Virus record (IMG/VR): IMGVR_UViG_3300032116_000210
Span: 1-59,867 of that record
Reading direction: 5' to 3' (one strand)
Length of the DNA: 59,867 nucleotides
From: a virus
Lineage: Duplodnaviria; Caudoviricetes
The stretch's first letter is position 1, and each line of letters opens with the position of its first letter. The notes beneath the pieces are model-generated. The model did not search any database. It saw nothing but the letters and a program-made list of their open reading frames with translations, and had not been told where the DNA came from. A program made the translations under genes and the position numbers. Below are positions 2,691 to 59,867 of this stretch, in pieces.

Positions 2691-2705
2691 TTTTTGTCAA
2701 TTCAG

Positions 2706-2733
2706 AGCCGCAGCGATGCGGCTTTTTTCTTTT
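2706..2733 (+). terminator. Intrinsic terminator in the late leader
   Basis: AGCCGCA-gcga-TGCGGCT hairpin followed by a T-run. Confidence 0.8.
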
Positions 2734-2746
2734 CTGGGAGCCGCTG

Positions 2747-2992: not shown

Positions 2993-3110
2993 TCTTCACA
3001 AACGCTTCACACGACAAGGCCTGGCCTGGCTGCGAAGCCGCGCCGGGCCTTGTTCTTTGTTGTGCAATCTGGTGCCTTGTTTAGGCACCCAACCTCAAGG
3101 AGTAGCAAAA

Positions 3111-3356: not shown

Positions 3357-3836
3357 ATGCGCAAGACGCGAAGCGCCTCGAACAGCAAGGCCACCCGCGT
3401 GGCCGACCTGGCCGGCGCTCCCCCGCAGCTGGCCACCAGCCAGGACCTGCTCGGCGCCAACGAGCCCCTGGTCGGCCGCCAGTACCCCAGCAAGCGCTCG
3501 GGCAAGATCCCGCACCTGATCAACCTCAAGGCCGTGGCCGAGGCGTTGATCGACGAGGGCCTGGACCCGGCGGCCGAGATCGCCCGGGTGCTCAAGGGCC
3601 GGCCGATGGTCGACGACAACGGCAACCCCGTTATCGACCCCGTCACGGGCCAGGAAGTCATGGAGCACCTGGTCGACCCCGAGATCCGGCTGCGCACCCT
3701 CAACAGCCTGCTGGAGTTCGTGCAGCCCAAGCTCAAGGCCGTGGAGGTCAAGCTCAACGGCAACCTCGAGCTCAGCTCTGAGCAGCTGGACCAGCGCCTG
3801 GGCGCCCTGATCGCCAAGGCGGCCAAATCCTCGTGA
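3357..3836 (+). CDS. Putative terminase small subunit
   Basis: Overlaps the terL start (GTGA). Helical protein with a FVQPKLKAVEV motif typical of TerS. Confidence 0.7.
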   Translation: MRKTRSASNSKATRVADLAGAPPQLATSQDLLGANEPLVGRQYPSKRSGKIPHLINLKAVAEALIDEGLDPAAEIARVLKGRPMVDDNGNPVIDPVTGQEVMEHLVDPEIRLRTLNSLLEFVQPKLKAVEVKLNGNLELSSEQLDQRLGALIAKAAKSS

Positions 3837-15985: not shown

Positions 15986-17044
15986 ATGTCTATTCAGAAT
16001 TACGGCACCGTTGCCTCACGGAACCTAATCCGTGCTGCACAGGGCATGCTTGAGCACGCCCAACCCATCACCGTTCTCGGTGACTTCGGCACCCAGCGCG
16101 AAATGCCGCAGAACTCCACGGACACCCTGGTGTTCCGCCGGACTCTGCCTTTTGGCGCCTCCACCACCGGCACCACGATCGAGGGCTCCAGCCGCTACGT
16201 CGGCACGCCTGACATCACTGCCAGCAACTTTGTGCTTGCAGAAGGTGTGACCCCCAACGCCAACACGATCAGCTTCCAGGACGTGTCGGTTCAGCTCCAG
16301 CAGTACGGCATCCTGTTCAAGTACAGCTCCAAAGTCGAGCAGCTGTATGAGGACGACATCCCCGGCGAAATGGTCAAGCTCACCGGCGAGACCCTGGCCG
16401 AGGTGATGGAGATGGTTCGCTACGGCGTGCTGAAGGCTGGCTCCACGGTGATCTACTCGAACGGCTCCAGCCGCTCGGGCATCAACACCGCCATCAGCCT
16501 GAACGCCCTGCGTAAGTCGGCCCGTACGCTCGAGTCCAACCGCTCCCGCCGCGTGACTTCCCGTCTCGCCCCTGGCGTGAACTTCGGCACCCGTGCTGTG
16601 CAGCCCGCCTACATCGTGTTCGTGCACACCGATGCGGTCTCTGACATCCGTAATCTTCCCGGCTTTACCCGCGTCGAAGAGTACGGTTCGTTCAAACCCA
16701 TCCACGACCGCGAAATTGGCGCTTGCGAAGACTTCCGCTTCATCAGCTCTCCGCTTCTGAAGCCCTTCCTTGCTGCCGGTTCAAGCACGCTCAACGGCAT
16801 GCTGTCTGTCGGTGCTTCGAACGTGGACGTGTACCCCTTCATCATCATCGGTGAAGACGCCTGGGGTCAGGTTGCACTCAAGGGCATGTCTGCCATCAAG
16901 CCCATCGTGCTCAAGGCCTCCCAGACCAACCACGCTAACCCCCTGGGTCAGTTTGGTTATGTCGGGGCTTCCACCTGGTTCGCCACTGTCCGCCTCAACG
17001 ACGCCTTCATGGCCCGTATTGAGGCTGGCGTGACGGCTCTTTGA
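15986..17044 (+). CDS. Major capsid protein (N4-gp56 family)
   Basis: LAEGVTP, QYG, EIGACEDFRF, DVYP and NPLGQFGYVG motifs, with highly biased codons. Confidence 0.93.
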   Translation: MSIQNYGTVASRNLIRAAQGMLEHAQPITVLGDFGTQREMPQNSTDTLVFRRTLPFGASTTGTTIEGSSRYVGTPDITASNFVLAEGVTPNANTISFQDVSVQLQQYGILFKYSSKVEQLYEDDIPGEMVKLTGETLAEVMEMVRYGVLKAGSTVIYSNGSSRSGINTAISLNALRKSARTLESNRSRRVTSRLAPGVNFGTRAVQPAYIVFVHTDAVSDIRNLPGFTRVEEYGSFKPIHDREIGACEDFRFISSPLLKPFLAAGSSTLNGMLSVGASNVDVYPFIIIGEDAWGQVALKGMSAIKPIVLKASQTNHANPLGQFGYVGASTWFATVRLNDAFMARIEAGVTAL

Positions 17045-23470: not shown

Positions 23471-26400
23471 GCAATGTCTTAAAGATGTTGATGCGGGGCG
23501 GCGTTAGCGCGCCCCTGGTTGACCCCAACTTCAATCAGACCGTTTTATTGCTGCACGGGGACGGCAACCAGGGGGCCAACAATTTCAGCAACCCTGGCCC
23601 GACGAAATACTTAGCGTTCTCGGACAACTCCAACAACAACTATCCGATAACGGTCAACGGCGATGCGTACGGAGATAACTTCAGCCCGTACGAAGGGAAC
23701 TACAGCGCGTTTTTTGATGGTACGGGGGATTATTTAAGCCTACCGAATAATGCTGCTTTTGCTTTCGGGACGGGTAATTTCACAGTTGAATTCTGGGTAT
23801 ATGCCAATGGCAGTAGCAACACACACGGCTTAGTCGCTCCTACACAAACCGGTACATACTGGTCCTCTTTGATTTTTGGAGGGCTAATTTACTGGCAAAA
23901 TATTAACGGCACGAGTAATTTATTTAGTTATAGTTATTCCGGGTACTACGATAAATGGACACATGTTGCGTTTGTTAGAAATAGCGGCACTATCAAAATG
24001 TATTTGGATGGTGTAGAGCGGGCGTCTGCCAGTGACTCTACCAATTACACTTTGACAGCAGGCGACATTAACATTGGAAGAGATTTAGATAACTCGGCTT
24101 TACTTAGTGGTTACATATCCAATGTTCGGATAGTTAAGGGCACTGCCGTCTACACCTCTGCCTTCACCCCGCCAACAGCACCACTTACCGCTATCACCAA
24201 CACCCAGCTCCTCACCTGCCAATCCAACCGCTTTGTCGACAACAGCACCAACAACTTCACCATCACCCGCGTCGGTGACACCCGCATCTCCCCATTCCAG
24301 CCGTTCACCCTGGCGGCGAATGACAACGGTTCCGGATATTTTGATGGCACTGATGGCACGATAAACGTATCAAACATAGCCTTTACAGGCAATTTTACTT
24401 TTGAGTGTCTGTACTACCCCGAGGCTTTGGGATCTGGAGTTTCCACAAACTACTCCGTCTTGTTCGGGGAGTTTACGACCAGCAATCTCCAGGTGTACGT
24501 CAACACCAACGGGTCAATTTCTTATTACAACGGCACGTCAAACATTATTGTTTCAAGCACCGGGCTTGTTACGGTTGGTCAGTGGCACCACATCGCGCTT
24601 GTTCGGAGTGGCACAACTACAACGATGTACCTGAACGGGTCTTCTGTAGGGAGCGCGACTGACTCTGGAACAAGATCTATCGGCGCAATCGGCAACTCTT
24701 TCCCGTCGACTCCTAACTATGGCGTACGCGGGTATGTATCAAACGCCCGTTTCGTAAGTTCGGCGATCGTTCCCCCCGCTGGCGGGCCTACATCCCCGCT
24801 TACCAACGTCACCAACACCCAGCTCCTCACCTGCCAATACAGCGGCACGGTACGCAACGTGGGGTTCATCGACAGCAGCCCGTATGACTTTCCGATCACC
24901 AGGGTAGGCAACACCACCCAAGGCACGTTTAGCCCGTTCAGCTTGGGGGCGGGAATGTGGAGTAACTATTTTGATGGAAGCATAGACTGGCTAAGCGTCA
25001 CCTATGACGCAACGGCGTTTGGGTTTGGTACGAATAATCTAACAATAGAAGCGTGGATATATCCTGTAAGTTTTTCAACTTTCCCAAGTATTTTTTCTCA
25101 AAGAGGGGCGTCTGCGGGAATTACATTTAGGTTGGACTCCAGCGGAAAGCCTGAATTTTATTATGCCGGCGGTACAGGGTATTTCACCGCTAGCACAGGA
25201 GCGGCATTAAATACGTGGAGCCACGTTGCTTTGACTAGAGAGGGCAACGTATTTAAGTTGTGGCTGAATGGGCAAAATGTGGGAACGTCGGGAACGATTA
25301 CAGCAAGTATGACAAACGCTATTAACGTGGCGATTGGGCGTAGCGCTGCTAGCGCTGTAGAGTTTTACGCCGGATATTTGTCAAATCTGCGTGTTGTAAA
25401 TGGGAGAGCCGTATACACCAGCAACTTCACCCCAAGCACCGTTCCTTTAGGCGTTACTTCCGGCGGTCAGAACCCACCCCAGGGTACAGAGACCTCTCTT
25501 CTTACCTGCCAAGCTAATCGTCTTGTAGATAGCAGCACTACGCCCAGAACCGTTACCGACAACGCGACAACGGAGGTACGCGCTTTTTTTCCTTTCGCAC
25601 CCACGGCTGCTTACGATCCTGCCGTGAATGGCGGGAGTGGGTATTTTGACGGCAGCGGGGACTATCTGCGCCGCGGAACCTCCCTCGACCCGGCGTTTGA
25701 CTTTGGGTCTGGCAACTTTACGATTGAGATGTTTGTTTACCACGTCGCTCTCAAAAACTACTCCGGTTTGATTGGAGAAGTTCCGGGGACGACAAATAAC
25801 ACAATCAACTTTTATACCTTCGCCGATGGCACTGTCGGGGCCACGCTTCTTGGTGTCGGCCAACAAATGGCTTCGTCCGCAGGCGTCGCTCGCGCAAACG
25901 CCTGGCAGCACTTTGCGCTTGTCAGAAACAGCGGAGTTACCACGCTGTATGTTGACGGGGTGAGTAGGGCAACTTACTCGAGCAGCGCGAATATGGCCGT
26001 CGGCGGTTCGGCCGGTATCGGTATCGGGTCGACACACGGAACCGGGGACCTAAACGGCTACATCTCAAACCTAAGAATTCTGAAAGGGGTCGCGCAGTAC
26101 ACCGCCAATTTCACCCCACCAACAGCCCCCCTAACAGCAATCACCAACACCAGCCTGCTGCTCAACTTCGCCAACGCTGGCATCCTCGACCAGACCGGCA
26201 AGACTGTTCTGGACACGGTCGGCAACGCGCAGGTCGATACCAACGTCAAAAAGTTCGGTATGGGGTCTATGAAGTTTGATGGGACCGGCGACTACCTGCT
26301 CGTGCCCCATTCCAACGATCATCTGCTTGGCCCCGCCCCGTTCACGATCGAAATGTGGGTTAACCCCGACTCGATCGGGCTGAAAGCCTTTATCGGCAAG

Positions 26401-26760
26401 GGTGTTTCAGGCAGTACCGGCTGGGCCGTAGGAATCGATTCTTCGGGCCGGGTCGTCTTTTATTACAGCAACTCGTCGTTCAACTCTACAGGGTCAATCT
26501 CTGCGTCAACCTGGACCCACATTGCTGTTGTTCGGACGGGCATCAATTCAAACGAGACGAAGATTTACATCAACGGGTCGAACGACGGCACCGGCACGGT
26601 TGGTTTTGATTTCACTCAGACAGAGGCGATGTACATCGGTTCCGGCAGGGGCGGCAACGGGCTCTTGAATGGCTACATCGACGACCTGCGCATCACCAAA
26701 GGCGTGGCCCGCTACACCGCCAACTTCACGCCGCCCGCACAAGCATTCCCAGACAAGTAA
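23467..26760 (+). CDS. LamG/concanavalin-like repeat receptor-binding protein (five modules)
   Basis: ATG at 23467 overlaps the fibre stop. Five FDG...FT(I/V)E.W...W.H(V/I)A.VR...GY(I/L)SNLR modules. Confidence 0.9.
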   Translation: MSNVLKMLMRGGVSAPLVDPNFNQTVLLLHGDGNQGANNFSNPGPTKYLAFSDNSNNNYPITVNGDAYGDNFSPYEGNYSAFFDGTGDYLSLPNNAAFAFGTGNFTVEFWVYANGSSNTHGLVAPTQTGTYWSSLIFGGLIYWQNINGTSNLFSYSYSGYYDKWTHVAFVRNSGTIKMYLDGVERASASDSTNYTLTAGDINIGRDLDNSALLSGYISNVRIVKGTAVYTSAFTPPTAPLTAITNTQLLTCQSNRFVDNSTNNFTITRVGDTRISPFQPFTLAANDNGSGYFDGTDGTINVSNIAFTGNFTFECLYYPEALGSGVSTNYSVLFGEFTTSNLQVYVNTNGSISYYNGTSNIIVSSTGLVTVGQWHHIALVRSGTTTTMYLNGSSVGSATDSGTRSIGAIGNSFPSTPNYGVRGYVSNARFVSSAIVPPAGGPTSPLTNVTNTQLLTCQYSGTVRNVGFIDSSPYDFPITRVGNTTQGTFSPFSLGAGMWSNYFDGSIDWLSVTYDATAFGFGTNNLTIEAWIYPVSFSTFPSIFSQRGASAGITFRLDSSGKPEFYYAGGTGYFTASTGAALNTWSHVALTREGNVFKLWLNGQNVGTSGTITASMTNAINVAIGRSAASAVEFYAGYLSNLRVVNGRAVYTSNFTPSTVPLGVTSGGQNPPQGTETSLLTCQANRLVDSSTTPRTVTDNATTEVRAFFPFAPTAAYDPAVNGGSGYFDGSGDYLRRGTSLDPAFDFGSGNFTIEMFVYHVALKNYSGLIGEVPGTTNNTINFYTFADGTVGATLLGVGQQMASSAGVARANAWQHFALVRNSGVTTLYVDGVSRATYSSSANMAVGGSAGIGIGSTHGTGDLNGYISNLRILKGVAQYTANFTPPTAPLTAITNTSLLLNFANAGILDQTGKTVLDTVGNAQVDTNVKKFGMGSMKFDGTGDYLLVPHSNDHLLGPAPFTIEMWVNPDSIGLKAFIGKGVSGSTGWAVGIDSSGRVVFYYSNSSFNSTGSISASTWTHIAVVRTGINSNETKIYINGSNDGTGTVGFDFTQTEAMYIGSGRGGNGLLNGYIDDLRITKGVARYTANFTPPAQAFPDK

Positions 26761-27953: not shown

Positions 27954-28456
27954 TGCTTTCTCTTCTCTCGACCCTCGGCGGACTTCTGATCTCCGGCCTG
28001 CCCAAGCTCCTGGAGTATTTCCAGGACAGGCAGGACAAGGCCCACGAACTGGCGCTCGCGCGCATGCAGGGCGAGATCCAGGCCCAGATGATGCGCGAAG
28101 GGTTCCTGGCCCAGCAGCGCGTCGAAGAGATCCGCACCGACCAGGTGGCCATGCAGACCGACGCCCAGATGACCGTGGCGGCCCTGGAGCACGACCAGAA
28201 GGTGCTCGATCGGGCCAGCACCTGGGTGGCCAATTACGTGGGCACAGTGCGGCCGACGGTCACCTACATCTTTGTGCTCGAGCTCGTGGCCATCAACGTC
28301 TACATGATGTATTGGGCGCTGTCTCAGGACAATTTGATCACCAGCATGGACCACATCAAGATTTTTGCCGACGTCATCTTCAGTTCTGACGAGATGGCCA
28401 TGCTGGGCGGAATCATCGGGTTCTGGTTTGGGTCCCGGAACTGGAACAAAAAGTGA
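27953..28456 (+). CDS. Holin-like membrane protein
   Basis: TVRPTVTY and IIGFWFGSR motifs of three-TM phage holins. Precedes the lysozyme. Confidence 0.75.
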   Translation: MLSLLSTLGGLLISGLPKLLEYFQDRQDKAHELALARMQGEIQAQMMREGFLAQQRVEEIRTDQVAMQTDAQMTVAALEHDQKVLDRASTWVANYVGTVRPTVTYIFVLELVAINVYMMYWALSQDNLITSMDHIKIFADVIFSSDEMAMLGGIIGFWFGSRNWNKK

Positions 28457-28956
28457 ACCTGAGCAAAGTCGGTGCTACGTTAATGCACCGATACGAAGGT
28501 TTCCGCAGTAAGCCGTACCTCTGCCCGGCCCACATCTGGACGATCGGCTACGGCCACGTCCTGTACCAGGATCAGATCCGGCTGCCCATGGTCCGCAAGG
28601 AGGGCCGCCCCGGGCTGATCCGCAAAGAGTACCCGCTTAAACCGGAGGACAACCGTGTCTGGACCAAAGAAGAGATCAACCGACTATTCGAAAAAGACGT
28701 CGCAGCTTTTGAACGCGGTGTTCTTCGACTTGTTCCCAGCAGTGCTGGCAGCCAAGGCCGCTTTGACGCTCTTGTCTCTATCTCCTTCAATTTTGGGTTA
28801 GGCAACCTGCAGCGGTCATCGATCCGCATGCGGGCCAACCGGGGCGATCACGAAGGGGCGGCCGAGGCGTTCATGCTTTGGACCAAGGCTGGCGGCCGGG
28901 AGCTGCCAGGGCTGGTCCGGCGCCGGCTGGACGAGAAAAGACTGTATCTGAGCTAG
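28453..28956 (+). CDS. Endolysin, GH24 phage lysozyme
   Basis: YEG...PYLCPAHIWTIGYGH, FDALVSISFNFG and LPGLVRRR motifs. Confidence 0.95.
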   Translation: MNLSKVGATLMHRYEGFRSKPYLCPAHIWTIGYGHVLYQDQIRLPMVRKEGRPGLIRKEYPLKPEDNRVWTKEEINRLFEKDVAAFERGVLRLVPSSAGSQGRFDALVSISFNFGLGNLQRSSIRMRANRGDHEGAAEAFMLWTKAGGRELPGLVRRRLDEKRLYLS

Positions 28957-33073: not shown

Positions 33074-36000
33074 ATGGCGTTGGTTCCCGAAGACGATCTC
33101 CCAGAAGGACTCGCCCCACGCGGGCTTGCGGTACCAGACGACGATCTGCCAGGTGCCCCGACCAAAGAAAAGGGCTTCGTCTCCAACGTCGGCGATCTTC
33201 TGGTCGAGGGCGGCAAGAGCGCGATCGCTTCGGCCCAGGTCTCGCCCGCGGTCATCAGCGGCGAGGGCGTACAGGACAAGGCTGGCCTGATTGCGCAGCA
33301 GCTGGCTAAGCCCCAGACCGATCAGCCCAAAGAACTGCGGGAAGCCAAGGGCGCCTTCAAAGACGAGGGCGAAGCCTGGGAGAAATCCCAAGGATTCCTA
33401 GAAGGCGCTGGCGCTGTCGGCCAGATGCTCTTCGAAGTCGGCCGCCAGGCCGTCACAAACCCCAAGGGCGTGGCCTATATGCTCTCCGAGCAGGCAGCCA
33501 ACATGGCCCCCGCCATCGTCGGCATGATCGCCGGCGGCAAGACCGGCGCCATGGTCGGAAGCGTTGCCGGCCCCAAAGGCGCGGCAGTCGGCGGCGTAGC
33601 CGGTGCCGTTGGCGGAGCCTTTACCGGCCAGGCGCCCCTTGAGATCGGCTCTGAATTTATCGGCCTGGTCGGAAAAGAGCTTTCCGCTCGAGGCCTGGAG
33701 CCGACCGAAGCCAACGTCGCCGCTCTATTGCAAGACCCCGAATTCACACAAGGCGCGATCAACGACGCACGCGTTAAAGGCGCCACGACCGCTGGTATTG
33801 ACGCCGCTCTTACCGTTGCCTCTGGTGGTATCGCCACCGGCCCCCGGCGTGCAGCACTCAAGACGGCCACCGAAGAGCTCGGCGCAGGCGCCGATGCGGC
33901 GCAGATTGCCAAGCGCGCCGGCGAGATCCTGGACCAGCGCACGCTTGGGCAGAAGGCGACGACTGGCGCCACGGCCGTTGGCGTGGACGTGGCTGGTGGC
34001 GGTCTGTCAGAGGCCGGTGGCCAGCTGGCGGCGTACGGCCAGGTCGACCTGGCAGACGTCGGCTTGGAAATGCTCGGCGAGCTGGGCGGTGCGGCCATCG
34101 AAGTGCCGGCCGCAGGCTATTCCGTCACCCGTGACCAGATCTCACGCCAGCGCCAGGCGCAGGCGCAGCAGCTTTTACAGCAGGCACCCGACGCCGCCAC
34201 CGCAGCGGCCGCTGCCAACGAGCTGGCAGGATCAGTGGCTGATCTCGAGGCAGCTGTAAGCCAGTACTTAACACCTGGCGGTGCCATTCCCACGCCCGAG
34301 CAGGCAGCCGCCGCCCCCGCCGGTCCCCGCGAAGACCCGACCCGGGCAATGATCGACCGGCAGGCTGGGCTCATCGCTGAGGCCCAAGCCGCGGGTACGG
34401 AATTCGACCGGCAGATGGCCCTGGACCAGGCCCAGGCTGCGCTCCCACAGCCCCAGGAAGGGCGCTCTGCTGGGTACGTCGACCTCACCCCCATGAACGA
34501 CATGCAGGCGCAGCAGCGCCTGGCAATCCTGCGCGACGAGACCGCTCGGTCAGGTGGTAATGCGCTTGCATTGGCCATCGTTCCGCACCCGGCGCAAGAG
34601 GGCCGCTTTGCCATCGGCACGCAGGCCCTGCCCGATCTCAACCTCCCCACCACGACACCCACAGTCACACCCGATCAGGCCCAATTCCAGATCGAATCCG
34701 CTGCCTTGGGCGGACAGGTTAGCCAGGCTCGCGCTGAGGACAGCGCGACTCGCGGTCCGGTCATTGACCGTGCACTGAAGAACGTCGAAGAGCGGGGCGG
34801 GGTGGCTACGCCATCCGAGGCGCGGATCTTCCAAGAGGCCGGCATTGGCCAGCCCTACGACCGCGTCGATCCCGCCCTCGAGCCGGGTCCCGCGCCGCTC
34901 ATCGAGACCGCCGGTGCTGCGCGTGAATCGTTCACGCCCAACCAGCAGCTGGCAGATCAAGAGGTCCAGGCCGACCAGGCCGCCCGCCGCCAGGCTGACC
35001 TCGCCCAGCGTGAGCGCACGACCCAGGAGCAGATCACAGCTACCAGCCAGCCGCAGGCTGCACCCGACGCTGGCCAGGTGATCTCTGCCCTGGTCACACC
35101 TGGCACGCAGCGCTCGGCCGAGCAGGTGCGCCTGGTCAATCAGGCCCGCAGCCGCTACAGCCCCCAAGACTTCAGCATCCTCGAGCGCGCCGCCACGGCA
35201 CCGTTCCAGCTGGACACGCAAGAGCGGATGCGCTTGCGTGAGCTGCGCAACCCGCCGGCTGTGCCCGAAACGAGCACGATCGTGCCCGAAACAGGCACGG
35301 GCCTCATGGGCACCCGCGTGGCCGCGCGCCTGGGGCAGCCCAGCAATGGCCGCATTGTCACGACCAACGCCAAGTTCTCCACGCAGCGTATAGACGGCAA
35401 GATCACGATCAACGACAGCGGCACGCAGCACGAGGTCCGTGTCGTCGAGCCAGCCCGCATGGGCACCGAAGGTCGTCTGCTGCAGCAGCTCGCCAGGATC
35501 TTCAACAAGCGCCTGATCGCATTCGAATCTGACACGCTGCAGGTCGACGGCTTTGTGCGCGACGAGGACAACGGGGCGATCTATATCAACGCCAAGGCTT
35601 CTGTCTCGCCGCTGGCCGTGTTCGGCCACGAGCTCACGCATCAGCTCAAGCGCGACAACCCGCAGGCCTACGCTGCCCTGGAGGCCGTCGTTCAGCGCGA
35701 GCTGGGCGAGGGCGCCATGGCGCAGTTCGAGAAGGACTACGGCGAGGGCGCCAATCTGGAGGAAATAACGAGTGACCTAGTCGGCAACCGATTCCAGGAG
35801 ACCGACTTCTGGCAGTCGGTGTTTGACGAGATCGCTGCCCAGAATTCAGAGCAGGCCCGCAACATCGTCTACCGCCTGGCCGCTGCAATCACCCGTGCGG
35901 TCAACGCATTCATGAAGGTCGTACGTCAGCCTGGATTCCAGTCTGACCAGTACGTCAAGGACCTCAACGCCGTGAAGGTGGCGGTGCGCCAGGCCCTGAC

Positions 36001-39000
36001 CACCTACGCCCAGCAGCAACGCCCTGCCACCGAGCAGGCTGCAGAGACAACGGCAGAGCCGGCCCAGCCGGCGGCCCGGCCCAGCATGGCCGAGCGGCTG
36101 CGTGAGGCGGCTCGTGCTGCTCGCACAGAGATGGGCGAGACAGTCACGGCAAGTAAGGCACGCCGCGGTGGCGTGGTCGAGCAGGCCGGCGAATTCACGA
36201 TCCGCACCCAGAAAGACGGCACGCTGGGCGTCAACGGAGACCCCGAAGCGATCCGTGCTCTGCTGCCCGAGGGCATCGCTGGCCGCGTTGTACCAGGGGG
36301 CATGGTCTTTACCACCGCCGCCGCGCCGCGTGTGCGCGCTGCGCTCGAGGGCCGCAAGCTGGCCTACAGCCGGGCAGGGCAGGTGACCGAAAAGCTGCCC
36401 ATGAAGGACGGCAAGTACGTCGGCGCGCCGGAGAAGTTCAACACCCCGGGCAAGATCACGCAGCTGCGCAAGTGGCTCAACCGCCTGGCCCGCGAAGGCG
36501 AGGCCGGCCGCTACTGGTACGAGAACAGCAGCCGCGAGGTGCTGGCCATGGTCGGCGGCAACGTCACAGAGGCCCGCAAGTTCGTGGCCCTGCTGTCGAT
36601 TTACTCGCCCCAGGCGAAGGTCGACGCCAACTCCACGTTTGCCCTGCGCGCATGGGCGCAATACAAGGCCGGCCAGCCGATCAGCGTCAAGACTGGCGTG
36701 CAGGACCGCAAGGCCCAGGAGGCGCTCGACGACGTCGACGCATTCTGGTCCGGCGAGAAGACCGGAAACTTCTTCTTCAACCTGCTGCGTGAGATTGACC
36801 CCAGCACGGCTGGCAAGCAGGGCGCCACGATCGACATGTGGATGATGCGCGCCGGTCAGTACAGCAACGACGCGCCGACTGCCACGCAGTACGCGTTCAT
36901 GGAGAACGAAACCAACCGCCTGGCGCAGGAGCTGGGCTGGGAGCCGCAGCAGGTCCAGGCTGCGATCTGGGTAGCGATGAAGGCCCGCATGGAAAACGCG
37001 GGCGTGAAAAAGCGCACCGAGGCGAGCAGCGAAAAGAAGGGCTGGATTCGCTACGAGTACCCGCTCAAGAACGGAAAGCCCCGCAAGACGCGGGTGATTG
37101 TCGATGCGCAGAAGCACCGCGACAACTGGCTCAAGCACGCCTTCGAACACGACCCCACGAAGGACGACACGCAGCAGGCGAAGTTCGACTTCAGCGACGG
37201 CTTACGGCGCCACGTCGGCCAACTGTCCTGGGAGGCCCGCCCTGGCCGTTCGACCAACGTGCTGCCGGGGGTCAATGACGCCCCGTATGAACAGCAGGTC
37301 GAGTTCCAGCAGGCCGTGCAGAAGGCGCTGCTCGATGAGAACGGTATTGACCTGCTGGCCTACAAGCTGGGCATGCTCATCGACGGCCCGGACATCTTGG
37401 CGCCAGGTGTGTGGCAGGGCGAGATTGCCGCCGGCATGCAGAAACTTGTGGCGCTTGCGCCTGCCAAAGGTGATGAAGGCAAGACCAGCATCGACCCGGC
37501 GCAGAAGAAAGCCATTGAGACCTACGCCGCGATGCTGGGGCTGCTGCTGCGCCAGGAGGGGGTGGGTTACCACCGTCCTTTCTACAACTCGGCAAAGAGC
37601 GCCAACAACGGGGTGGACCTGGTTGTCGGTCGTACCCTGTCTCCGGCCGAGGCACAAAGCCTGTGGGCGGCCATCGACCAGCGCATGCGTGCTGAAGGGG
37701 TAGAGAACTGGGAGAACAGCGCCGGAATGATCTCGTCGCCCACCGGCATGCGAGTTGTAAATTTCGGTGCCGTAAGTGACAATATCGCTTTCAGAGAATT
37801 AGTAAGGGACGCTGCCGAAACGCTGGCGATTGATGAGGTAGAGCTGCAGAGCTTTGCGAGCGACGGCGACCTGGTATTTAACGACTGGAAGGAAAGCCCA
37901 AATGGCGAAGATTATCGATCGCGGATACGCGAAGCCTACGGACCCGATCTACTCGAATGGGCCGGAACTGTTCTCGCCCCGCGCGTTCAGGCCGTCTTCA
38001 ACGAGTTCAGCTCCCGATACGGCTGGGGAGACCCCGGCCGAGTCGACACCCTCTTCGACCAGCCAGCAGCAGAAGCCGGGCCAGCCCAAGAAGTAACCAG
38101 CACCGACCCCAGCGCCGGCGATCAGAACCTACAGTTCAGCCGGCGCCGCAAGCCTGCACCCAAGAAGACAGTCAAGGCCTACAAGCTCTTCCGCGTCGAC
38201 GCACGCAAACCTGGTCAGCTCTTCCCGCTCTTCGTCAACGCCAACGACCCGGTCGACATCGGTGTCTGGCTGGACGCTGACGAGGGCCCGCTGACCGAGA
38301 AGGGCAAAGTCAAATCGAAGATTGGCGAGCTCGCCTACCGTCCCGGTTGGCATGCTGGCGATGTGCCTATTGCAACGCACATTGGCGGCAAGTCCGACCC
38401 GTCTCTGACTGCGCCAGACGTCAGGCCCGAGAACCACGTCTGGGCTGAGGTCGAGATGGCCGCCGATCGCGACTGGCAGAAGGAAGCCAACAAGCGTGGC
38501 ACCAACGCCCAGGGCAAGCTGATCGCAGGCAAGGCCCACATCACGGACCAGATCCCGACCGACGGCTTCTACCGATACAAGACCAACCCCAACATGACCG
38601 GCAACTGGCTCATTGGTGGGTCAATGAAGGTCAACCGTATCCTGTCGGATACAGAGGTCGAGCGGATCAACGCCGACGCTGGCGTGGAAGACCTGCCGCG
38701 TGAGCAGCCGTTTGACGCGGAGAAGTATGGGTTTGGTAAGGCCAAGCTCAGCCGCCAGCGCACTGGCCCCTTCTACTCGCAGCTGGCCGAGGCCATCGAC
38801 CAGGTGCCCGAGCGCCTGGCCACGCAGCCGGCTGCTCAGTGGAAGGCCTGGCTTGCTAGCAATGCAAGCAAGCTCGGGGTCAAGAAGGATGAGCTCGAGT
38901 GGTCCGGTATCAACGACTACCTGGACCTGCGCGGCAAGGACAAGGTCTCTAAGGACGAGATCGGCGAGTACCTGGACGCCAACAACGTGCAGGTCAAAGA

Positions 39001-42000
39001 CGTGCTCTACGACGACCAGATCGGAGAGAACACCAAGTTTGGTGAGTTCCAGCTGCCGGGTGGTGAGAACTACGCAGAGCTAATGCTGCAGCTGCCCGAC
39101 TCCGTCACCAAAGCCCGCGGCATTTCTGATTACCGCGTGCCGCAGATGCACCGCTACGGCAAACGCGACGCGGACTACAACCGCCTGCTGCACGTTCGCT
39201 TCAATGACCGCACCGACGCCGACGGCAACCGCGTGCTGTTCATCGAAGAGATTCAATCCGACTGGGCGCAGGAGGGTAGAAAGAGAGGGTTTGCCAAGGC
39301 TGGCGATAAGGCCTACGAAGTGCGGTTAAGCATGAACGGGGCGCGGGTCAACGCCGATGGCCAGGCCGTCTTTGCCACCCGCGAAGAAGCGCAAGAGCTT
39401 GCCGATAGAACGTCTGGCGCTCCGGCTTTCATGAATGCAGAAGTTGTTGAAATCGAAGCGCGCGGCGTATCGCAAGCCCCCTTCGTGCAAGACACCAAAG
39501 CCTGGGTCACCCTGGCCGTCAAGCGCATGCTGGTCTTTGCCGCAAGAAACGGCTACGACAAGGTGGCGTTCATCAATGGCCAGCAGTCAGCCGACCGGTA
39601 TGACTTGAGTAAGCAAGTCGATCGCGTTTCGTACTTCCCGGATTCGCAAATGGTAGTTGCTTACAAAAATGGCCGAATCGCAGCCGAGAAAAAAGTAGCT
39701 GACGAAAACGAACTAGCTGATGTCATCGGTAAAGACGCTGCGCGCAAAATTCTTGAACAGCCAGTAGAAGAAGTGGTTAACGCCCGCGGCAATCAAGCTC
39801 AAAGTTTGTCCGGCGTCGACCTCAAGGTCGGCGGCGAAGGCATGATCAAGTTCTACGACCAGATCGTGCCCCAGGTCGTCAACGACGTGCTCAAGAAAGT
39901 CGGCGGCGGCAAGCTCGAGCCAACCACCCTGGTCAACCAGGAAGGCGACTTCGACGCCGAGGATCTCGGCAACGCAACGCAGGCAGAGCTCGACCAGCTG
40001 GCAGCCGGCGGCGTGGCGATGATCCAGCCAGGCTTCACCATCACCGACGAGATGCGCGAGAAGGTCGAAGACGGCATGCCGCTCTTTTCCCGCAAGCGCA
40101 ACTACGGCACGCTGACCGCAGCCCAGGAGCAGGCGCTGCGCAACGTCGGCGGCATCGTGCCCACGCAGACCGTCAAGCAGCGCGCCGCAGAGCTCAAGCA
40201 GAAGTTCAGCCGCAGCTGGTTCTCCGGCATCTTCGACCAGTTCGCGCCGCTCAAAGAAGTCGACCAGCGGGCCTACATGCTGGCCCGTCTGTCCAAGGGT
40301 TCCGACGGGGCCCTGGAAGCGCTGATGCTCTACGGCAAACCGTTCATGAACGGCGACGTGCCCGACGTCAATGTCAACGACAAGGGCTTTATCCACGTCA
40401 TGGCCAGCCTCAAGGGCGAGCACGACCGCTTCCTCTGGTGGGTGGCCGCGCAGCGGGCCGAGAACCTCAAAGCCCAGGGCCGTGAGAACCTCTTCACCGA
40501 CCAGGACATCAGCTCGCTGAAGTCGCTCAACCAGGGCAACTTCGACGACGGCACGCCAAGGGCCCAGGCCTACGCCAACGCCCTGGTCAAGATGAACGAG
40601 TTCAACGACGCGGTGCTCGCGATCGCCGAGAAGTCCGGTCTCATCGACAGCGCGGCGCGGCAGCTCTTCAAAGACATGCCCTACGTGCCGTTCTACCGGG
40701 TCATGGAAGACGGCCTCGAGGGGCCGAGCTTTAGCTCCGGCCTGGTCAACCAGCAGGCCTGGAAGAAACTCAAGGGCGGCACGCAGAAACTCAACGAGGA
40801 CCTGCTCTCTAACGTCCTGCTCAACTGGGCCCACCTCTTCGATGCGTCTGGTAAGAACCGCGCAGCGGTGGCATCCATGCAGGCCGCAACCCAGATCGGT
40901 ATCGCGCAGCCCGTGGCCGCCGGCACCAAGGGTGCGGTCAAGGTCATGGAGCAGGGGCAGACCAAGCACTACACCATCGACGACCCCTACATCATGGAGG
41001 CCGTCACCTCGCTGAACTACCAGGCCCCTGGATTCTTCCAGCCTTTCAGCACGTTTAAGAAGTGGCTCACGATCGGCGTCACCGCCAGCCCGACCTTCAA
41101 GATCAAGAACCTGATCCGCGACTCCCTGCAGGCCATCGGCACCACGGACCTGAGCTACAACGTGGCCAGCAACGTGATGAAGGGCTTCAAGCTCGGCAGC
41201 CAGGACACCCAGACCTTCGCATCCATGCTCGCCGGCGGCGGCCTGATCCGCTTCGGCTCCATGCTCGAGGGCACCAGCCGCACGCAGTACCTGATCGAGC
41301 GGCAGGGCGGCATTCTGCTCAACGAAGGCGGCTGGAAAAAACTGCAGCGCCAGATGACCGGCCTGGTCGAGGCCTACGCAGAGGTCGGCGATCGCCTGGA
41401 GAACGTCAACCGGGCAGCGCTCTACGACCGACTGATCGCCAAGGGCTACAGCCAGGCCGAGGCCAACTTCATGGCCCGCGACCTGATGGACTTCAGCCTG
41501 CAGGGCCGCTGGCCGGTGGTTCGTTTCCTTGCCCAGTCGGTGCCGTTCCTGAATGCCCGACTTCAGGGTCTGAGCAAACTTGGGCGAGGGGCCAAAGAGG
41601 ACCCCCGACGGTTCGGCTATGTGGTCGGCGCCGTGGCGATGGCCAGCATTGCGCTGATGCTCGCCTACGAGGACGACGAAGACTGGAAGAAGCGCCCCGA
41701 TTGGGACCGCGACGCCAACTGGTGGTTCAAGATCGGCGACACCGCCTTCCGTATCCCGAAGCCCTTCGAGATTGGCGCCATCGGCACGGTGGCAGAGCGC
41801 ACCTGGGAGATGGCGTTTAACCAGGAGATGACCTGGAAGCGCTACCGCGCTCGCCTGAGCCACATGCTCTTCGAGACGTTCGCGATGGACCCCACGCCGC
41901 AGCTCATCGTGCCGATCTCCGAGATCTACGCCAACCGGGAAGGGTTCACCGGCCGCCCGATCGAGGGCATGAGCCTGGAAAAACTGCGCCCCGAAGACCG

Positions 42001-42583
42001 GGCCACCGAGAGCACCTCCAGTGTCGCCCGCATGCTGGGCCAGATGGGGCTACCCAGCCCGGTGTCCCTCGTCAAGGGCAGCTACGAGAAGCTCTCGCCG
42101 GTGCAGATCGACCACCTCATCCGCGGCTACTTCGGATGGCTAGGCACGACGGCCAGCAACATCGTGGACTTCGGGCTGCGGCCGCTAATGGGTCGTGGCG
42201 AGCGGCCTGAGTACCGCCTGAAAGACGTCTTCGTGGTGGGCAACTTCGCCGAGGGTCTACCCGCAGGCTCGAGCCGCTACGTCGACCAGCTCTATGACCA
42301 GGCGCGTATCATCGAGCAGGCCTACATGAGCTACCGCGACGCCGTGAAGAAGGGCGATCGGGAGCAGGCCAAAGAACTGCTGGCAGAAGAGGGCGACAAG
42401 ATCCGCGCCTACAAGGCGATCAACCGGATCTCGGACCAGGTGTCAGAAATCAACCGCAAAATTCGGCAGATTGAAGCTAGCAAGACCCTGTCTGCAGAGA
42501 CCAAGCGGCGGATGATTGACCAGCTGTCTCAGCGCAAGAACGCCATCGCCCAACGCAGCCAGCGGTTCGCTGCGATCGACTGA
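33074..42583 (+). CDS. Giant (3169 aa) polyvalent ejection protein: glycine-zipper N-terminus, HExxH peptidase, HhH-glycosylase-like and other effector-like domains, LPD38-like C-terminus
   Basis: Single uninterrupted ORF with consistent codon bias. HELTH at 35627, WY..SPQ..N..G.K..F..N..TID.WM.R, AYRPGWH..WAEVE, EEIQSDW and RIPKPFEIG motifs. Confidence 0.88.
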   Translation: MALVPEDDLPEGLAPRGLAVPDDDLPGAPTKEKGFVSNVGDLLVEGGKSAIASAQVSPAVISGEGVQDKAGLIAQQLAKPQTDQPKELREAKGAFKDEGEAWEKSQGFLEGAGAVGQMLFEVGRQAVTNPKGVAYMLSEQAANMAPAIVGMIAGGKTGAMVGSVAGPKGAAVGGVAGAVGGAFTGQAPLEIGSEFIGLVGKELSARGLEPTEANVAALLQDPEFTQGAINDARVKGATTAGIDAALTVASGGIATGPRRAALKTATEELGAGADAAQIAKRAGEILDQRTLGQKATTGATAVGVDVAGGGLSEAGGQLAAYGQVDLADVGLEMLGELGGAAIEVPAAGYSVTRDQISRQRQAQAQQLLQQAPDAATAAAAANELAGSVADLEAAVSQYLTPGGAIPTPEQAAAAPAGPREDPTRAMIDRQAGLIAEAQAAGTEFDRQMALDQAQAALPQPQEGRSAGYVDLTPMNDMQAQQRLAILRDETARSGGNALALAIVPHPAQEGRFAIGTQALPDLNLPTTTPTVTPDQAQFQIESAALGGQVSQARAEDSATRGPVIDRALKNVEERGGVATPSEARIFQEAGIGQPYDRVDPALEPGPAPLIETAGAARESFTPNQQLADQEVQADQAARRQADLAQRERTTQEQITATSQPQAAPDAGQVISALVTPGTQRSAEQVRLVNQARSRYSPQDFSILERAATAPFQLDTQERMRLRELRNPPAVPETSTIVPETGTGLMGTRVAARLGQPSNGRIVTTNAKFSTQRIDGKITINDSGTQHEVRVVEPARMGTEGRLLQQLARIFNKRLIAFESDTLQVDGFVRDEDNGAIYINAKASVSPLAVFGHELTHQLKRDNPQAYAALEAVVQRELGEGAMAQFEKDYGEGANLEEITSDLVGNRFQETDFWQSVFDEIAAQNSEQARNIVYRLAAAITRAVNAFMKVVRQPGFQSDQYVKDLNAVKVAVRQALTTYAQQQRPATEQAAETTAEPAQPAARPSMAERLREAARAARTEMGETVTASKARRGGVVEQAGEFTIRTQKDGTLGVNGDPEAIRALLPEGIAGRVVPGGMVFTTAAAPRVRAALEGRKLAYSRAGQVTEKLPMKDGKYVGAPEKFNTPGKITQLRKWLNRLAREGEAGRYWYENSSREVLAMVGGNVTEARKFVALLSIYSPQAKVDANSTFALRAWAQYKAGQPISVKTGVQDRKAQEALDDVDAFWSGEKTGNFFFNLLREIDPSTAGKQGATIDMWMMRAGQYSNDAPTATQYAFMENETNRLAQELGWEPQQVQAAIWVAMKARMENAGVKKRTEASSEKKGWIRYEYPLKNGKPRKTRVIVDAQKHRDNWLKHAFEHDPTKDDTQQAKFDFSDGLRRHVGQLSWEARPGRSTNVLPGVNDAPYEQQVEFQQAVQKALLDENGIDLLAYKLGMLIDGPDILAPGVWQGEIAAGMQKLVALAPAKGDEGKTSIDPAQKKAIETYAAMLGLLLRQEGVGYHRPFYNSAKSANNGVDLVVGRTLSPAEAQSLWAAIDQRMRAEGVENWENSAGMISSPTGMRVVNFGAVSDNIAFRELVRDAAETLAIDEVELQSFASDGDLVFNDWKESPNGEDYRSRIREAYGPDLLEWAGTVLAPRVQAVFNEFSSRYGWGDPGRVDTLFDQPAAEAGPAQEVTSTDPSAGDQNLQFSRRRKPAPKKTVKAYKLFRVDARKPGQLFPLFVNANDPVDIGVWLDADEGPLTEKGKVKSKIGELAYRPGWHAGDVPIATHIGGKSDPSLTAPDVRPENHVWAEVEMAADRDWQKEANKRGTNAQGKLIAGKAHITDQIPTDGFYRYKTNPNMTGNWLIGGSMKVNRILSDTEVERINADAGVEDLPREQPFDAEKYGFGKAKLSRQRTGPFYSQLAEAIDQVPERLATQPAAQWKAWLASNASKLGVKKDELEWSGINDYLDLRGKDKVSKDEIGEYLDANNVQVKDVLYDDQIGENTKFGEFQLPGGENYAELMLQLPDSVTKARGISDYRVPQMHRYGKRDADYNRLLHVRFNDRTDADGNRVLFIEEIQSDWAQEGRKRGFAKAGDKAYEVRLSMNGARVNADGQAVFATREEAQELADRTSGAPAFMNAEVVEIEARGVSQAPFVQDTKAWVTLAVKRMLVFAARNGYDKVAFINGQQSADRYDLSKQVDRVSYFPDSQMVVAYKNGRIAAEKKVADENELADVIGKDAARKILEQPVEEVVNARGNQAQSLSGVDLKVGGEGMIKFYDQIVPQVVNDVLKKVGGGKLEPTTLVNQEGDFDAEDLGNATQAELDQLAAGGVAMIQPGFTITDEMREKVEDGMPLFSRKRNYGTLTAAQEQALRNVGGIVPTQTVKQRAAELKQKFSRSWFSGIFDQFAPLKEVDQRAYMLARLSKGSDGALEALMLYGKPFMNGDVPDVNVNDKGFIHVMASLKGEHDRFLWWVAAQRAENLKAQGRENLFTDQDISSLKSLNQGNFDDGTPRAQAYANALVKMNEFNDAVLAIAEKSGLIDSAARQLFKDMPYVPFYRVMEDGLEGPSFSSGLVNQQAWKKLKGGTQKLNEDLLSNVLLNWAHLFDASGKNRAAVASMQAATQIGIAQPVAAGTKGAVKVMEQGQTKHYTIDDPYIMEAVTSLNYQAPGFFQPFSTFKKWLTIGVTASPTFKIKNLIRDSLQAIGTTDLSYNVASNVMKGFKLGSQDTQTFASMLAGGGLIRFGSMLEGTSRTQYLIERQGGILLNEGGWKKLQRQMTGLVEAYAEVGDRLENVNRAALYDRLIAKGYSQAEANFMARDLMDFSLQGRWPVVRFLAQSVPFLNARLQGLSKLGRGAKEDPRRFGYVVGAVAMASIALMLAYEDDEDWKKRPDWDRDANWWFKIGDTAFRIPKPFEIGAIGTVAERTWEMAFNQEMTWKRYRARLSHMLFETFAMDPTPQLIVPISEIYANREGFTGRPIEGMSLEKLRPEDRATESTSSVARMLGQMGLPSPVSLVKGSYEKLSPVQIDHLIRGYFGWLGTTASNIVDFGLRPLMGRGERPEYRLKDVFVVGNFAEGLPAGSSRYVDQLYDQARIIEQAYMSYRDAVKKGDREQAKELLAEEGDKIRAYKAINRISDQVSEINRKIRQIEASKTLSAETKRRMIDQLSQRKNAIAQRSQRFAAID
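37902..38096 (+). CDS. Candidate nested +1-frame gene (64 aa, MAKIIDRGYAKPTDPIYSNGPELFSP...)
   Basis: AAGGA 8 nt before the ATG. TTGTAA-17bp-GACAAT at 37755-37783 in a locally AT-rich patch. Confidence 0.45.
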   Translation: MAKIIDRGYAKPTDPIYSNGPELFSPRAFRPSSTSSAPDTAGETPAESTPSSTSQQQKPGQPKK

Positions 42584-42585: not shown

Positions 42586-42794
42586 CGTGTGCAGATTTTG
42601 TGCAGTGACGGGGTCAAACAACTGCACACAAGAGCGTACAAGGGCGTACTAGAGCGTTGATTTTTTGAGGTTTTGTTCTGTATGTCTATGTACGTTGGTG
42701 CCCAGGAGAGTCCTCGCATTGCACGCCTAAGTACTTGATTGTATTATTCCCGCCTGAGGGCGTGTGAAGATTCTGTCCATCGGATCTTCACACG
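42586..42794. promoter_or_regulatory. attP region; core TGGTGCCCAGGAGAG (42696-42710) is the reverse complement of a tRNA-Leu-like 3' end
   Basis: The minus strand reads CTCTCCTGGGCACCA. IHF consensus match at 42728-42740. Arm-like repeats at 42586 and 42761 (16/19 identical). Lies directly upstream of the integrase. Confidence 0.78.
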
Positions 42795-42817
42795 AGCAAC
42801 GCCGTACAGGAGGGAAC

Positions 42818-43837
42818 ATGGCAAGCGTTAAACCGTACAGAGAGGGCTGGCGGGCAGTCATTCGCCGGGTGGGTTACCCGGTCAGATCGAAGATCTTCAA
42901 GATCAAGAAGGACGCCGATGCGTGGGCTCGAGAGATCGAGTCCAGCATGGACAACAACAAGTACCGGGACCTGGCCAAGGCCAAGGAGCACACGGTCGGG
43001 GCGCTCTTCGAGCGCTTCCGAGACGAGGTCTGCCCGCATCGCAAGGGTGCGCGGTGGGACCGGGTCCGAATCAACTTCCTGCTCAAGACCGCAGAGTTCA
43101 CCAAGCGCCGGCTGGACCAGCTGCGGTTCGAAGACATCCGCGACTGGCGCGACGCCAGGCTTAAGAAGGTCTCCCCGCCTTCGGTCAACCGTGAGATGAA
43201 CCTCATCTCCGGCATCTTCAGCCACGCCATCGAGGAGTGGTCCGCACCCCTGGCCGGCAACCCCGTGCACATGGTCAGCCGACCCAAGGGCTCCGATCGC
43301 CAGCGCAACCGGCGCTGGTACGACGATGAGCTGCAGGCGGTCCTAGACGCCGCCAAATGGGACGAGAAGGTCAAGCCAAGGACCGGCAAGGAGATGATGC
43401 CGTGGGCCCTCCTGCTGGCCCTAGAGACGGCAATGCGGCCCAGCGAGCTGACCGCGCTCAAGGTCTCAGACTTCCACCCCAAAGAACGCTGCGTGCGGCT
43501 AGTCGACAGCAAGAACGGCGAGGGCAGGGACGTGCCCCTGTCGACCAAGGCCATGCAGTACCTGGCCTTTCTGACAGAAGGGCGGCGCAGCGGCGAGCTG
43601 ATCTTTATCGTGAGCTGGGAAAGCCTGGGCGCCTACTACCGGGACGCCCGCAAGAAGGCCGGCATGGCGGATTCAGATCTGCGGTTCCGGGATCTGCGGC
43701 ACGAGGCCACGACGCGCCTGAGCCGCAAGTTCAGCAACCAGCTGGAGCTGGCTGCCGTGACCGGGCACCGGTCACTGCAGTCCTTGAAGCGCTACTACAA
43801 CCCCACCGCGGCCGAGCTGGCCAAGCGGCTGGACTGA
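42818..43837 (+). CDS. int: Tyrosine recombinase / integrase
   Basis: ETAMR, SKNG, FRDLRHEATTRL and VTGH...LKRY catalytic motifs. ATG at 42818 with AGGAGG RBS. Confidence 0.95.
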   Translation: MASVKPYREGWRAVIRRVGYPVRSKIFKIKKDADAWAREIESSMDNNKYRDLAKAKEHTVGALFERFRDEVCPHRKGARWDRVRINFLLKTAEFTKRRLDQLRFEDIRDWRDARLKKVSPPSVNREMNLISGIFSHAIEEWSAPLAGNPVHMVSRPKGSDRQRNRRWYDDELQAVLDAAKWDEKVKPRTGKEMMPWALLLALETAMRPSELTALKVSDFHPKERCVRLVDSKNGEGRDVPLSTKAMQYLAFLTEGRRSGELIFIVSWESLGAYYRDARKKAGMADSDLRFRDLRHEATTRLSRKFSNQLELAAVTGHRSLQSLKRYYNPTAAELAKRLD

Positions 43838-59763: not shown

Positions 59764-59867
59764 CTGTGAAAGAGCGGATCTCGAGCGCGCAGAGCTCGAA
59801 GAACCTGGGCGAGGTGTCGATCGAGGACATCGGCGACATTGACGTCGTCCGGGCGTGCGGGATGGTC
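59622..59867 (+). repeat. Terminal direct repeat, copy 2
   Basis: Matches 1-246 with one mismatch. Confidence 0.97.

Follow-up and report, generated by a model that had tools for sequence, protein, structure and literature searches.

We analysed a stretch of 59,867 nucleotides, called the window here, from the viral record IMGVR_UViG_3300032116_000210 (Caudoviricetes; IMG/VR), which encodes a giant protein of 3,169 residues. The main finding is that the modules of this protein are joined by a short peptide of the form hydrophobic-Ser-x-x-Arg, that such a peptide marks the module junctions of its relatives, and that the form it takes tends to go with the type of metallopeptidase that the protein carries. 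The reading that we favour, giving it a little less than an even chance, is that the junction peptide is the cut site of the zincin-like peptidase built into the same chain, as this association suggests. According to this proposal, the giant protein would be packed in the capsid and ejected into the host together with the DNA, as expected from its relatives. It would be laid out as a conserved N-terminal region, a zincin at a fixed position, the swappable cargo modules B, C and D, and a conserved LPD38 carrier, joined by flexible linkers that each hold a hydrophobic-Ser-(Arg/Lys)-x-Arg peptide under selection at the protein level. The zincin, with its HELTH motif, would recognise and cut these peptides, either after ejection or inside the head, and so separate the modules. 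Because the same short peptide stands at every module boundary, it would also act as a recombination point for swaps and deletions of modules.

The combination of LPD38 with several unrelated domains in one chain places the giant protein among the phage-type polyvalent proteins as defined by Iyer et al. (2017; PMC5512222). Pfam places LPD38 (PF18857) at residues 2868-3054 (E 1.4e-36; score 126.8 bits, cut-off 27) and DUF7178 at residues 1134-1304 (E 1.2e-12), and PHROGs matches phrog_18222 (2347-3162), the stand-alone family phrog_30118 (1698-1887; 194 positions, E 3.3e-68) and phrog_3842 (1143-1306). At least five blocks match separately, namely the zincin, the DUF7178 block, the phrog_30118 block, module D and the LPD38 module, and in relatives they recombine independently of one another; module B is found as one block, 74.6% identical, at residues 1266-1933 of the relative L009. 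The layout and the alignments agree with an earlier sequence-only reading of this DNA, in which an HExxH peptidase heads a series of separate domains within a large polyvalent chain. Among 50,697 phage records, relatives were found for the final third of the protein only (61 records, the best being Achromobacter phage CF418P1 with 39%); each of the matches that was opened is the C-terminal end of another giant protein, and the C-terminal carrier module is the sole part common with distant phages.

The five strings on which the sequence-only reading was built are all in frame in one open reading frame (ORF) and at the correct coordinates: HELTH at residues 852-856 (35627-35641), YSR at 1098 (36365), FSRRR at 1688 (38135), LSRQR at 1892 (38747) and FSRKR at 2338 (40085). 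The idea that the motifs fall between domain-like blocks holds for FSRRR, LSRQR and FSRKR, as judged by profile ends, breakpoints and low values of the predicted local distance difference test (pLDDT), but not for YSR 1098. FSRRR lies 6 residues ahead of the start of phrog_30118, LSRQR lies 5 residues past its end, and FSRKR lies 5 residues ahead of the conserved C-terminal module (phrog_18222 from 2347). When residues 1668-1929 were modelled with AlphaFold2 (27 sequences, pLDDT 72.9), pLDDT fell below 50 in two stretches, 1668-1687 and 1891-1895, the second of which covers KLSRQ, and residues 2330-2349 hold 107 mosaic breakpoints in comparison with 120 relatives. YSR 1098 precedes the inferred start of DUF7178 by about 14 residues (the Pfam match sets in at residue 1134, which is profile position 23). 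It has no Arg at +3 and lies within a block that is conserved in four relatives and contains no breakpoint; since it is off the pattern and marks no breakpoint, we do not count it among the junction peptides. Both YSR 1098 and a further FSRS at residue 2378 (40205), which is unconserved and inside the C-terminal module, look like chance occurrences.

The motif had been given as an aromatic or hydrophobic residue followed by Ser-Arg. The Ser is indeed kept and a hydrophobic residue before it is usual (I, A, L or F at the window sites), but an aromatic residue is not invariant, and the Arg that is kept is the one at +3. Position 3 varies in two close relatives from IMG/VR: the LSRQR and PLFSRKR of the window correspond to LSEKR and PLFSEKR in L008, and L010 has PLFSAAR. 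Downstream of the zincin module, the point of divergence between relatives is ...ETVTAS(K/P/R)AR(R/N). The kept residues of this lineage are therefore the Ser, most often preceded by a hydrophobic residue, and the Arg at +3. Under the pattern hydrophobic-S-x-x-R the window has six sites, which are FSRRR, LSRQR and FSRKR (whose Phe is part of the module D tail) together with three that the sequence-only reading did not contain: ISRQR at 356 (34139), FSTQR at 768 (35375) and ASKAR(R) at 1026 (36149). FSTQR and ASKAR(R) stand on either side of the HELTH module, and the former, which is also kept in the relative L016, matches in form the LSTER/FSTER junctions of relatives. In 20,000 shuffles of the protein, the five [FYL]SR seen were reached in 1.05% (1.33 expected from composition) and the three [FYL]SR[RKQ]R in none (0.016 expected), and the refined pattern [FLIMVYWA]S[RK]xR, which was set post hoc, is seen five times versus 0.48 in shuffles (P ~1e-4). 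The other ORFs of the window, in a list that includes some doubtful ones, are not enriched in the motif (7 seen versus 4.6 expected).

A search with the C-terminal module against 5.8 billion proteins returned 1,182 giants, and the best 120, together with the window protein, form the set of 121 proteins used below. The named sources of these 120 are mostly Comamonadaceae and other Burkholderiales, and their cargo is highly varied, including ART-PolyVal, PBECR nucleases, LPD1/3/5, ParB-like domains and helicases. In most of them, [FY]SR or x-S-x-x-R is found 5-25 residues before the conserved C-terminal module (72/96 and 23/25). Mosaic breakpoints were taken from an all-against-all BLAST of the 121 proteins; [FY]SR lies within 20 residues of a breakpoint peak in 176 of 226 cases, versus about 51 expected, and, with the C-terminal junction excluded, 99 of 1,354 internal peaks have [FY]SR versus 41 expected, which means that most of these 'peaks' are either no junctions or have another junction form. 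The Ser-Arg peptide is thus enriched at module junctions in homologues, as had been anticipated. The alternative offered beside cleavage, that the motif is a module-exchange junction, is also borne out, since modules are swapped or deleted exactly at it: the breakpoints show this, and L009 equals L008 without one 515-residue module, the deletion running exactly between the motif copies CTGAGCGAGAAGCGC and TTCAGCGAGAAGCGC, with 300 nt of right flank that are 100% identical. Module exchange at the junction is therefore directly seen in nature.

In a set of 108 non-redundant motif contexts, which share less than 50% identity across their central 33 residues, the regions on both sides of the motif are poor in hydrophobic residues (0.12-0.19 versus a background of 0.26), and the five residues after it are 65% A, G, S, P, Q or T. 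Met is enriched 7-fold at position -1 of [FY]SR (19/108 contexts), and three shorter gene calls begin at the motif (P0303 with MQFSR, P0353 with MYSR and P0386 with MSRQR), which could reflect internal starts or natural splits at junctions; no gene break at a junction was found in 10 related metagenome loci, in which 5 of the ORFs reach the edge of the locus. If the motif were the N-terminal tag of once-separate genes, the 121 relatives might be expected to begin with it, which they do not, and stand-alone module C begins MNETIIAYKLFRV, without it. At the DNA level, no repeat or recombination site common to the window sites was found, and their Ser codons (TCA, TCC, AGT, AGC, AGC and TCC) belong to both the TCN and the AGY families. 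The use of both codon families, together with the lack of a DNA repeat, indicates that it is the amino acid that is kept and that selection acts at the protein level. A scan of contigs in a genome collection gave three loci, including L016, the closest relative there (C-terminal module 85% identical), which is on a contig of a metagenome-assembled genome. Its bin label names a bacterial group unlike the Comamonadaceae and other Burkholderiales of all other named relatives, and this label may be unreliable.

Judged by sequence, the 121 proteins use two dialects of the junction: hydrophobic-S-x-x-R goes with the zincin of the window type, and [FY]SR followed by a small residue goes with the other proteins. 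Counted with the C-terminal junction left out and each context once, in 26 proteins with a window-type zincin versus 95 others, hydrophobic-S-x-x-R is near a breakpoint in 69/129 contexts of the former (18.4% of the sequence so covered) versus 39/180 of the latter (20.9%), and the stricter hydrophobic-S-[RK]-x-R in 27/44 versus 1/14. The relation is reversed for [FY]SR[AGST], which is near a breakpoint in 3/7 contexts of the zincin proteins versus 52/59 of the others. Among independent representatives of at least 2,600 residues that have the module D tail, 11 of the 11 with dialect A (S-x-x-R) carry a window-type zincin versus none of the 10 with dialect B (x-x-G-G).

The association can also be followed outside this set through modules C and D, with which a profile-free scan of 1.84 billion representatives was made; it returned 11,753 proteins at E <=1e-3, of which the best 150 were used. 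The 96 copies of module C are preceded by either [FY]-S-x-R-x-K-P (FSLRRKP, FSERTKP) or A-K-G-G-S-V-x-E-P-K, and followed by either x-[KR]-x-S-x-x-R (IKRSTQR, VKRSAPR) or A-x-G-G-x-V. In 44 copies at least one flank is unclassed, ambiguous or missing, and in 51 of the 52 classifiable copies both flanks are of the same dialect (43 B/B and 8 A/A, with 1 mixed). Likewise, the tail of module D, ITPEMRxxVxxGxP[LM][FY], continues with S-x-x-R in 19 cases, with x-x-G-G in 10 and with neither in 10. Since the same module is found with different dialects in different proteins, the junction is a property of the protein system and not of the module. As to the extent of these families, 4,162 of the matches reach E <=1e-30, so that modules C and D represent very large families; the listed relatives have 263-6,796 residues, often with several matched stretches, and the A-(K/D/E)-G-G-x-V dialect flanks the same modules in other lineages (proteins P0122-P0271). 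Many short module C proteins share the tail ...THAHHLEIEERPL.

The candidate protease is the zincin module at residues ~795-985, which aligns with modules in 24-25 other proteins of the family. H852, E853, H856, E897, D901, G904 and N905 are invariant in all 11 aligned sequences (26-73% identity), and E897 is the putative third zinc ligand. In 22 of the 25 listed relatives, the HExxH falls within residues 729-1139, immediately downstream of the conserved N-terminal region, and the other three (at positions 57, 92 and 186) are in proteins that look N-terminally cut. This constant position fits a fixed part of the system better than shuffled cargo. The AlphaFold2 model of the module has a pLDDT of 87.3 and a predicted template modelling score of 0.85, and when it was compared with 48,161 chains by VIA-align, the upper rows were mostly zincins: the catalytic domain of anthrax lethal factor (LF) was best (1yqy_A, Z 5.7, root-mean-square deviation 4.6 over 138 residues), followed by PprI (8sln_A, 5.2), PPEP-3 (9g0j_A, 5.1), PPEP-2 (6fpc_A, 5.0) and ArdC (6sna_A, 4.0), with Wss1 (4.0), BepA (3.7) and thermolysin (3.3) lower down. 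Anthrax LF, PPEP-2/3, PprI/IrrE and ArdC all have, like the window zincin, an HExxH helix and a downstream Glu, and the model hints at a resemblance to LF, PPEP, PprI and ArdC that is at the level of the fold and supports no claim of family membership.

Several observations weigh against cutting by the built-in zincin. First, the assignment of the module is itself faint: every Z is 5.7 or lower, under 8 and below the level of safe fold identity, and no Pfam peptidase model reaches its cut-off, M48 being the sole match among those inspected up to E 5 (E 0.047, 14 bits against 20.3). In addition, Foldseek gave no match for the model at E <=0.001, and NCBIfam gave no peptidase family. Second, 33 of the 121 relatives have no HExxH in their cargo and have the same mean [FY]SR count (1.85 versus 1.83); all 11 of these that were scanned lack a Pfam peptidase, and in these 11 an FSR is found 20-55 residues before ART-PolyVal, PBECR1 or MuF_C. 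Third, the zincin state changes six times on the tree of the C-terminal module (sign test p >=0.125), and an independent-pairs test of zincin type against the dialect of the C-terminal junction has 5-6 pairs only, with noisy scoring of S..R in a fixed window; with so few independent changes, no association test reaches significance. Fourth, such peptidases are also present in the N4 virion RNA polymerase, in ArdC and in TraC1, all of which are delivered unprocessed (PMC5512222), and the metallopeptidase of phi24B gp47, another LPD38 giant, has been suggested to degrade peptidoglycan and not gp47 itself (bioRxiv 10.64898/2026.04.10.717836). The available text of the respective reports mentions no cleavage of the LPD38 giants phi24B gp47, Burkholderia phage JC1 gp69 and Escherichia coli phage PTXU04 gp25, and the LPD38 giant Bcep22 gp75 is without Ser-Arg punctuation. 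A complex prediction of the zincin with Zn and the junction at 2318-2360 (score 0.01, mark 0.32) is uninformative either way. Of two other roles considered for the peptide, a twin-arginine signal was rejected because no hydrophobic stretch follows the motif, and self-cleavage at Phe-Ser of the Nup98 type is unlikely, since the motif lies in disordered linkers of variable sequence rather than within a folded domain.

Some of these points would be equally expected if the peptide were never cut and served as a tag for docking or threading, or as a hinge, either recognised by a partner in packaging or ejection or spacing the modules for packing and for passage through the tail. We consider this rather unlikely. 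It is in line with the short, exposed and linear nature of a motif in flexible linkers, with the uniformity of the lineage dialect within one protein, with its presence in proteins with or without a peptidase, and with the packaging of the N4 virion RNA polymerase, which stays unprocessed despite its peptidase module (PMC5512222). Against it, no candidate for the reader was found, and the window-type dialect tracks the peptidase family and no other visible module. Stand-alone module C, which is presumably unpackaged, does not have the tag, an observation that fits either reading.

Cutting by another protease, from the host or from another phage protein, with the zincin acting as an effector or wall-degrading enzyme, seems quite improbable to us. 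The undiminished [FY]SR in HExxH-less relatives would follow naturally from it, as would the peptidoglycan role given to the gp47 peptidase by the phi24B authors (bioRxiv 10.64898/2026.04.10.717836), and Iyer et al. accept that such peptidases could also be effectors (PMC5512222). Nevertheless, neither a prohead protease nor any other was found among the window genes with PHROGs and Pfam, the remaining ORFs of the window show no excess of the motif, and the dialect follows the zincin type within the same protein family, which a common host protease would not explain.

It would be no less improbable, in our view, that the peptide is solely an evolutionary seam, that is, a recombination sequence between cassettes without a function in the protein. 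The deletion that distinguishes L009 from L008 and the piling up of breakpoints at the motif are what such a seam would produce, but the window sites have no DNA repeat in common and use both Ser codon families, and the agreement of the two flanks in 51 of 52 copies, while the same module has different dialects elsewhere, is unlike a passive scar. Finally, a chance origin of the motifs in a protein containing Arg and Ser has next to no probability: loose hydrophobic-S-x-x-R is common, shows no junction enrichment in proteins without a window-type zincin (39/180, with 21% covered), and YSR 1098 and FSRS 2378 look accidental, yet for the core set of three sites chance is refuted by the shuffles, by conservation at the same junctions in relatives and by the enrichment at junctions.

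Returning to cleavage by the built-in zincin, a more far-reaching version of it can be formulated, which we regard as very unlikely as a whole: the junction peptides would be a cleavage code in lineage dialects, each read by a co-evolving zincin at a fixed position, and the modules would be freed with an N-degron timer. Many zincins cut on the amino side of a hydrophobic residue, and in the bacterial N-end rule pathway (ClpS-ClpAP), an N-terminal Phe, Leu or Tyr marks a protein for rapid degradation. If the cut were made before the hydrophobic residue, each freed module would start with Phe, Leu or Tyr, and injected effectors would carry a built-in timer; such a cleavage code would span a very large pool of injected polyvalent proteins, given the 11,753 relatives of modules C and D.

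As regards the cargo, the modules are likely to be counter-defence or host-takeover enzymes. Short homologues of module C occur as stand-alone proteins in rV5-like myophages and start right after the position of the motif. A VIA-align comparison of its model gave mostly rows of the ADP-ribosyltransferase superfamily, all weak (PARP-1 Z 4.6, MbcT 4.3, Arr 4.1, and also RES toxins, DarT and ParT), and Foldseek gave no match at E <=0.001 and Pfam ART-PolyVal none to the module; we take the model as a faint lead towards an ADP-ribosyltransferase-like enzyme and not as an assignment. Module D has no match in Pfam, NCBIfam or PDB sequences, and a search of the ESM Atlas with it gave unnamed clusters (best score 0.85) and no lead. 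PDB sequence searches with all six segments of the protein returned nothing meaningful, and NCBIfam gave no match.

The coordinates of the giant ORF and its parts are given in the table. At the start of the protein, residues 1-32 (33074-33170) hold the pair VPEDDLP ... VPDDDLP, and the Gly/Ala-rich stretch that comes later has a weak, below-cut-off match to Pfam Gly-zipper_Omp (residues 149-187, E 0.0063). Many of the 121 proteins start likewise with two copies of a lineage-specific aromatic/acidic peptide of 6-8 residues (NPFDQFD, FSYEDAFG, WWKQG or GPWSNY, each twice), followed by K-P-K and a Gly-rich region; this duplicated peptide could be a docking or packaging signal.

Table. Giant ORF of the window, with its modules and junction peptides (window coordinates)
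Feature	Position	Strand	Basis or remark
Giant ORF P0001, 3,169 aa, LPD38-type polyvalent protein	33074-42583	+	ORF call, Pfam, PHROGs
N-terminal region, residues 1-355	33074-34138	+	Duplicated peptide VPEDDLP / VPDDDLP, then Gly/Ala-rich stretch
Junction ISRQR, residues 356-360	34139-34153	+	Alignments of 5 close relatives start at 357; 5 breakpoints in 350 bin
Candidate junction FSTQR, residues 768-772	35375-35389	+	~27 residues before zincin; 5 breakpoints in 800 bin
Zincin-like metallopeptidase module, residues ~795-985	35456-36028	+	Alignment, AlphaFold2 model, VIA-align
HELTH motif of zincin; invariant E897; invariant D901	35627-35641; 35762-35764; 35774-35776	+	11-sequence alignment
Junction ASKARR, residues 1026-1031, after zincin	36149-36166	+	Relatives diverge at 1030-1051; P0008 has RFSAARR there
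Cargo module B, residues 1032-1683	36167-38122	+	Small leading domain, YSR 1098 (36365-36373), DUF7178 (36473-36985)
Junction FSRRR, residues 1688-1692	38135-38149	+	Between modules B and C
Cargo module C, residues 1698-1887	38165-38734	+	phrog_30118; AlphaFold2 model pLDDT 72.9; possibly ADP-ribosyltransferase fold
Junction LSRQR, residues 1892-1896	38747-38761	+	pLDDT <50 at 1891-1895
Cargo module D, residues 1897-2337	38762-40084	+	Conserved tail ITxEMRxKVxxGxPLF
Junction FSRKR, residues 2338-2342	40085-40099	+	Before C-terminal module; breakpoint pile-up
Conserved C-terminal carrier module, residues 2343-3169	40100-42580	+	LPD38 at 2868-3054 (41675-42235)

The window is an apparent whole phage genome, with a terminase (3833-5305), a portal (9165-11399), a major capsid protein (15986-17044), tail genes, a lysozyme (28453-28956), an integrase (42764-43837), a DNA polymerase, an exonuclease and a primase/helicase, and it is of a temperate podophage-like type of about 60 kb. 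Its first 25 bases occur again at 59,622 and its last 25 at 222, which suggests that the ends overlap by about 246 bases (1-246 and 59622-59867, inexact from end to end) as an assembly overlap; the window therefore probably represents one entire genome of about 59.6 kb, either circular or terminally redundant. The giant ORF closes the block of virion genes, directly upstream of the integrase. Further upstream, 23353-26760 (+) encodes a probable repetitive tail fibre or spike of 1,135 residues, in which 4-5 repeated stretches match PHROGs annotated as baseplate wedge or virion structural proteins.

The gene position and the LPD38 relatives found in virions suggest that the giant protein is probably packed in the virion and injected. 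Thus, phi24B gp47 is abundant in virions according to mass spectrometry and has been proposed to be an ejection protein (bioRxiv 10.64898/2026.04.10.717836), JC1 gp69 is virion-associated with 51 unique peptides in mass spectrometry (PMC9144972), and PTXU04 gp25, whose C-terminal module is the same (28% identical over ~770 residues), is required for infection (PMC11879866). Even if the junction peptide is not a cut site, it is a conserved linear motif in a class of proteins on which infection by at least one cultured phage depends. Processing of polyvalent proteins by their own peptidases has been predicted since 2017, and we found no cut site named in print; the analysis offers six candidate sites, a candidate protease with named catalytic residues, and the proposed rule that the dialect follows the type of peptidase. 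If cleavage is confirmed, thousands of giant phage proteins that lack annotation could be divided into their modules from sequence, and the cargo modules could be expressed singly.

Chains of modules that are freed by a built-in protease cutting at short linker motifs are known from MARTX toxins and viral polyproteins, in which the cutting has been demonstrated and the proteases are of the cysteine or serine class. The window protein differs from these in that its candidate protease is a zincin and that cutting is proposed, and no homology is implied by the comparison. Also comparable are phi24B gp47, JC1 gp69, Bcep22 gp75 and PTXU04 gp25, which have the same C-terminal module and are likewise encoded at the end of the virion block. 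The distant phage giants that were examined have only the C-terminal third in common with the window protein, and seven of them (from PTXU04, CF418P1, phiARM81mr, Vibrio phage 1.232.O, Pag-Yong1, Palmer and VvAW1) have no comparable punctuation. There is a further likeness to the polyvalent proteins of Iyer, Burroughs, Anand, de Souza and Aravind (2017, J Bacteriol; PMC5512222), which also combine unrelated domains in one chain, LPD38, an embedded zincin-like peptidase and mosaic cargo, and in which LPD38 is listed as restricted to the phage type and the peptidases are predicted to process the chain into units. In the available main text of that paper we found neither 'FSR', 'linker' or 'boundaries' nor a junction motif, and full-text searches of the literature, supplements aside, yielded no description of one for polyvalent or LPD38 proteins. 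The window protein does have one, and it is thus a known kind of protein with a real and conserved junction code.

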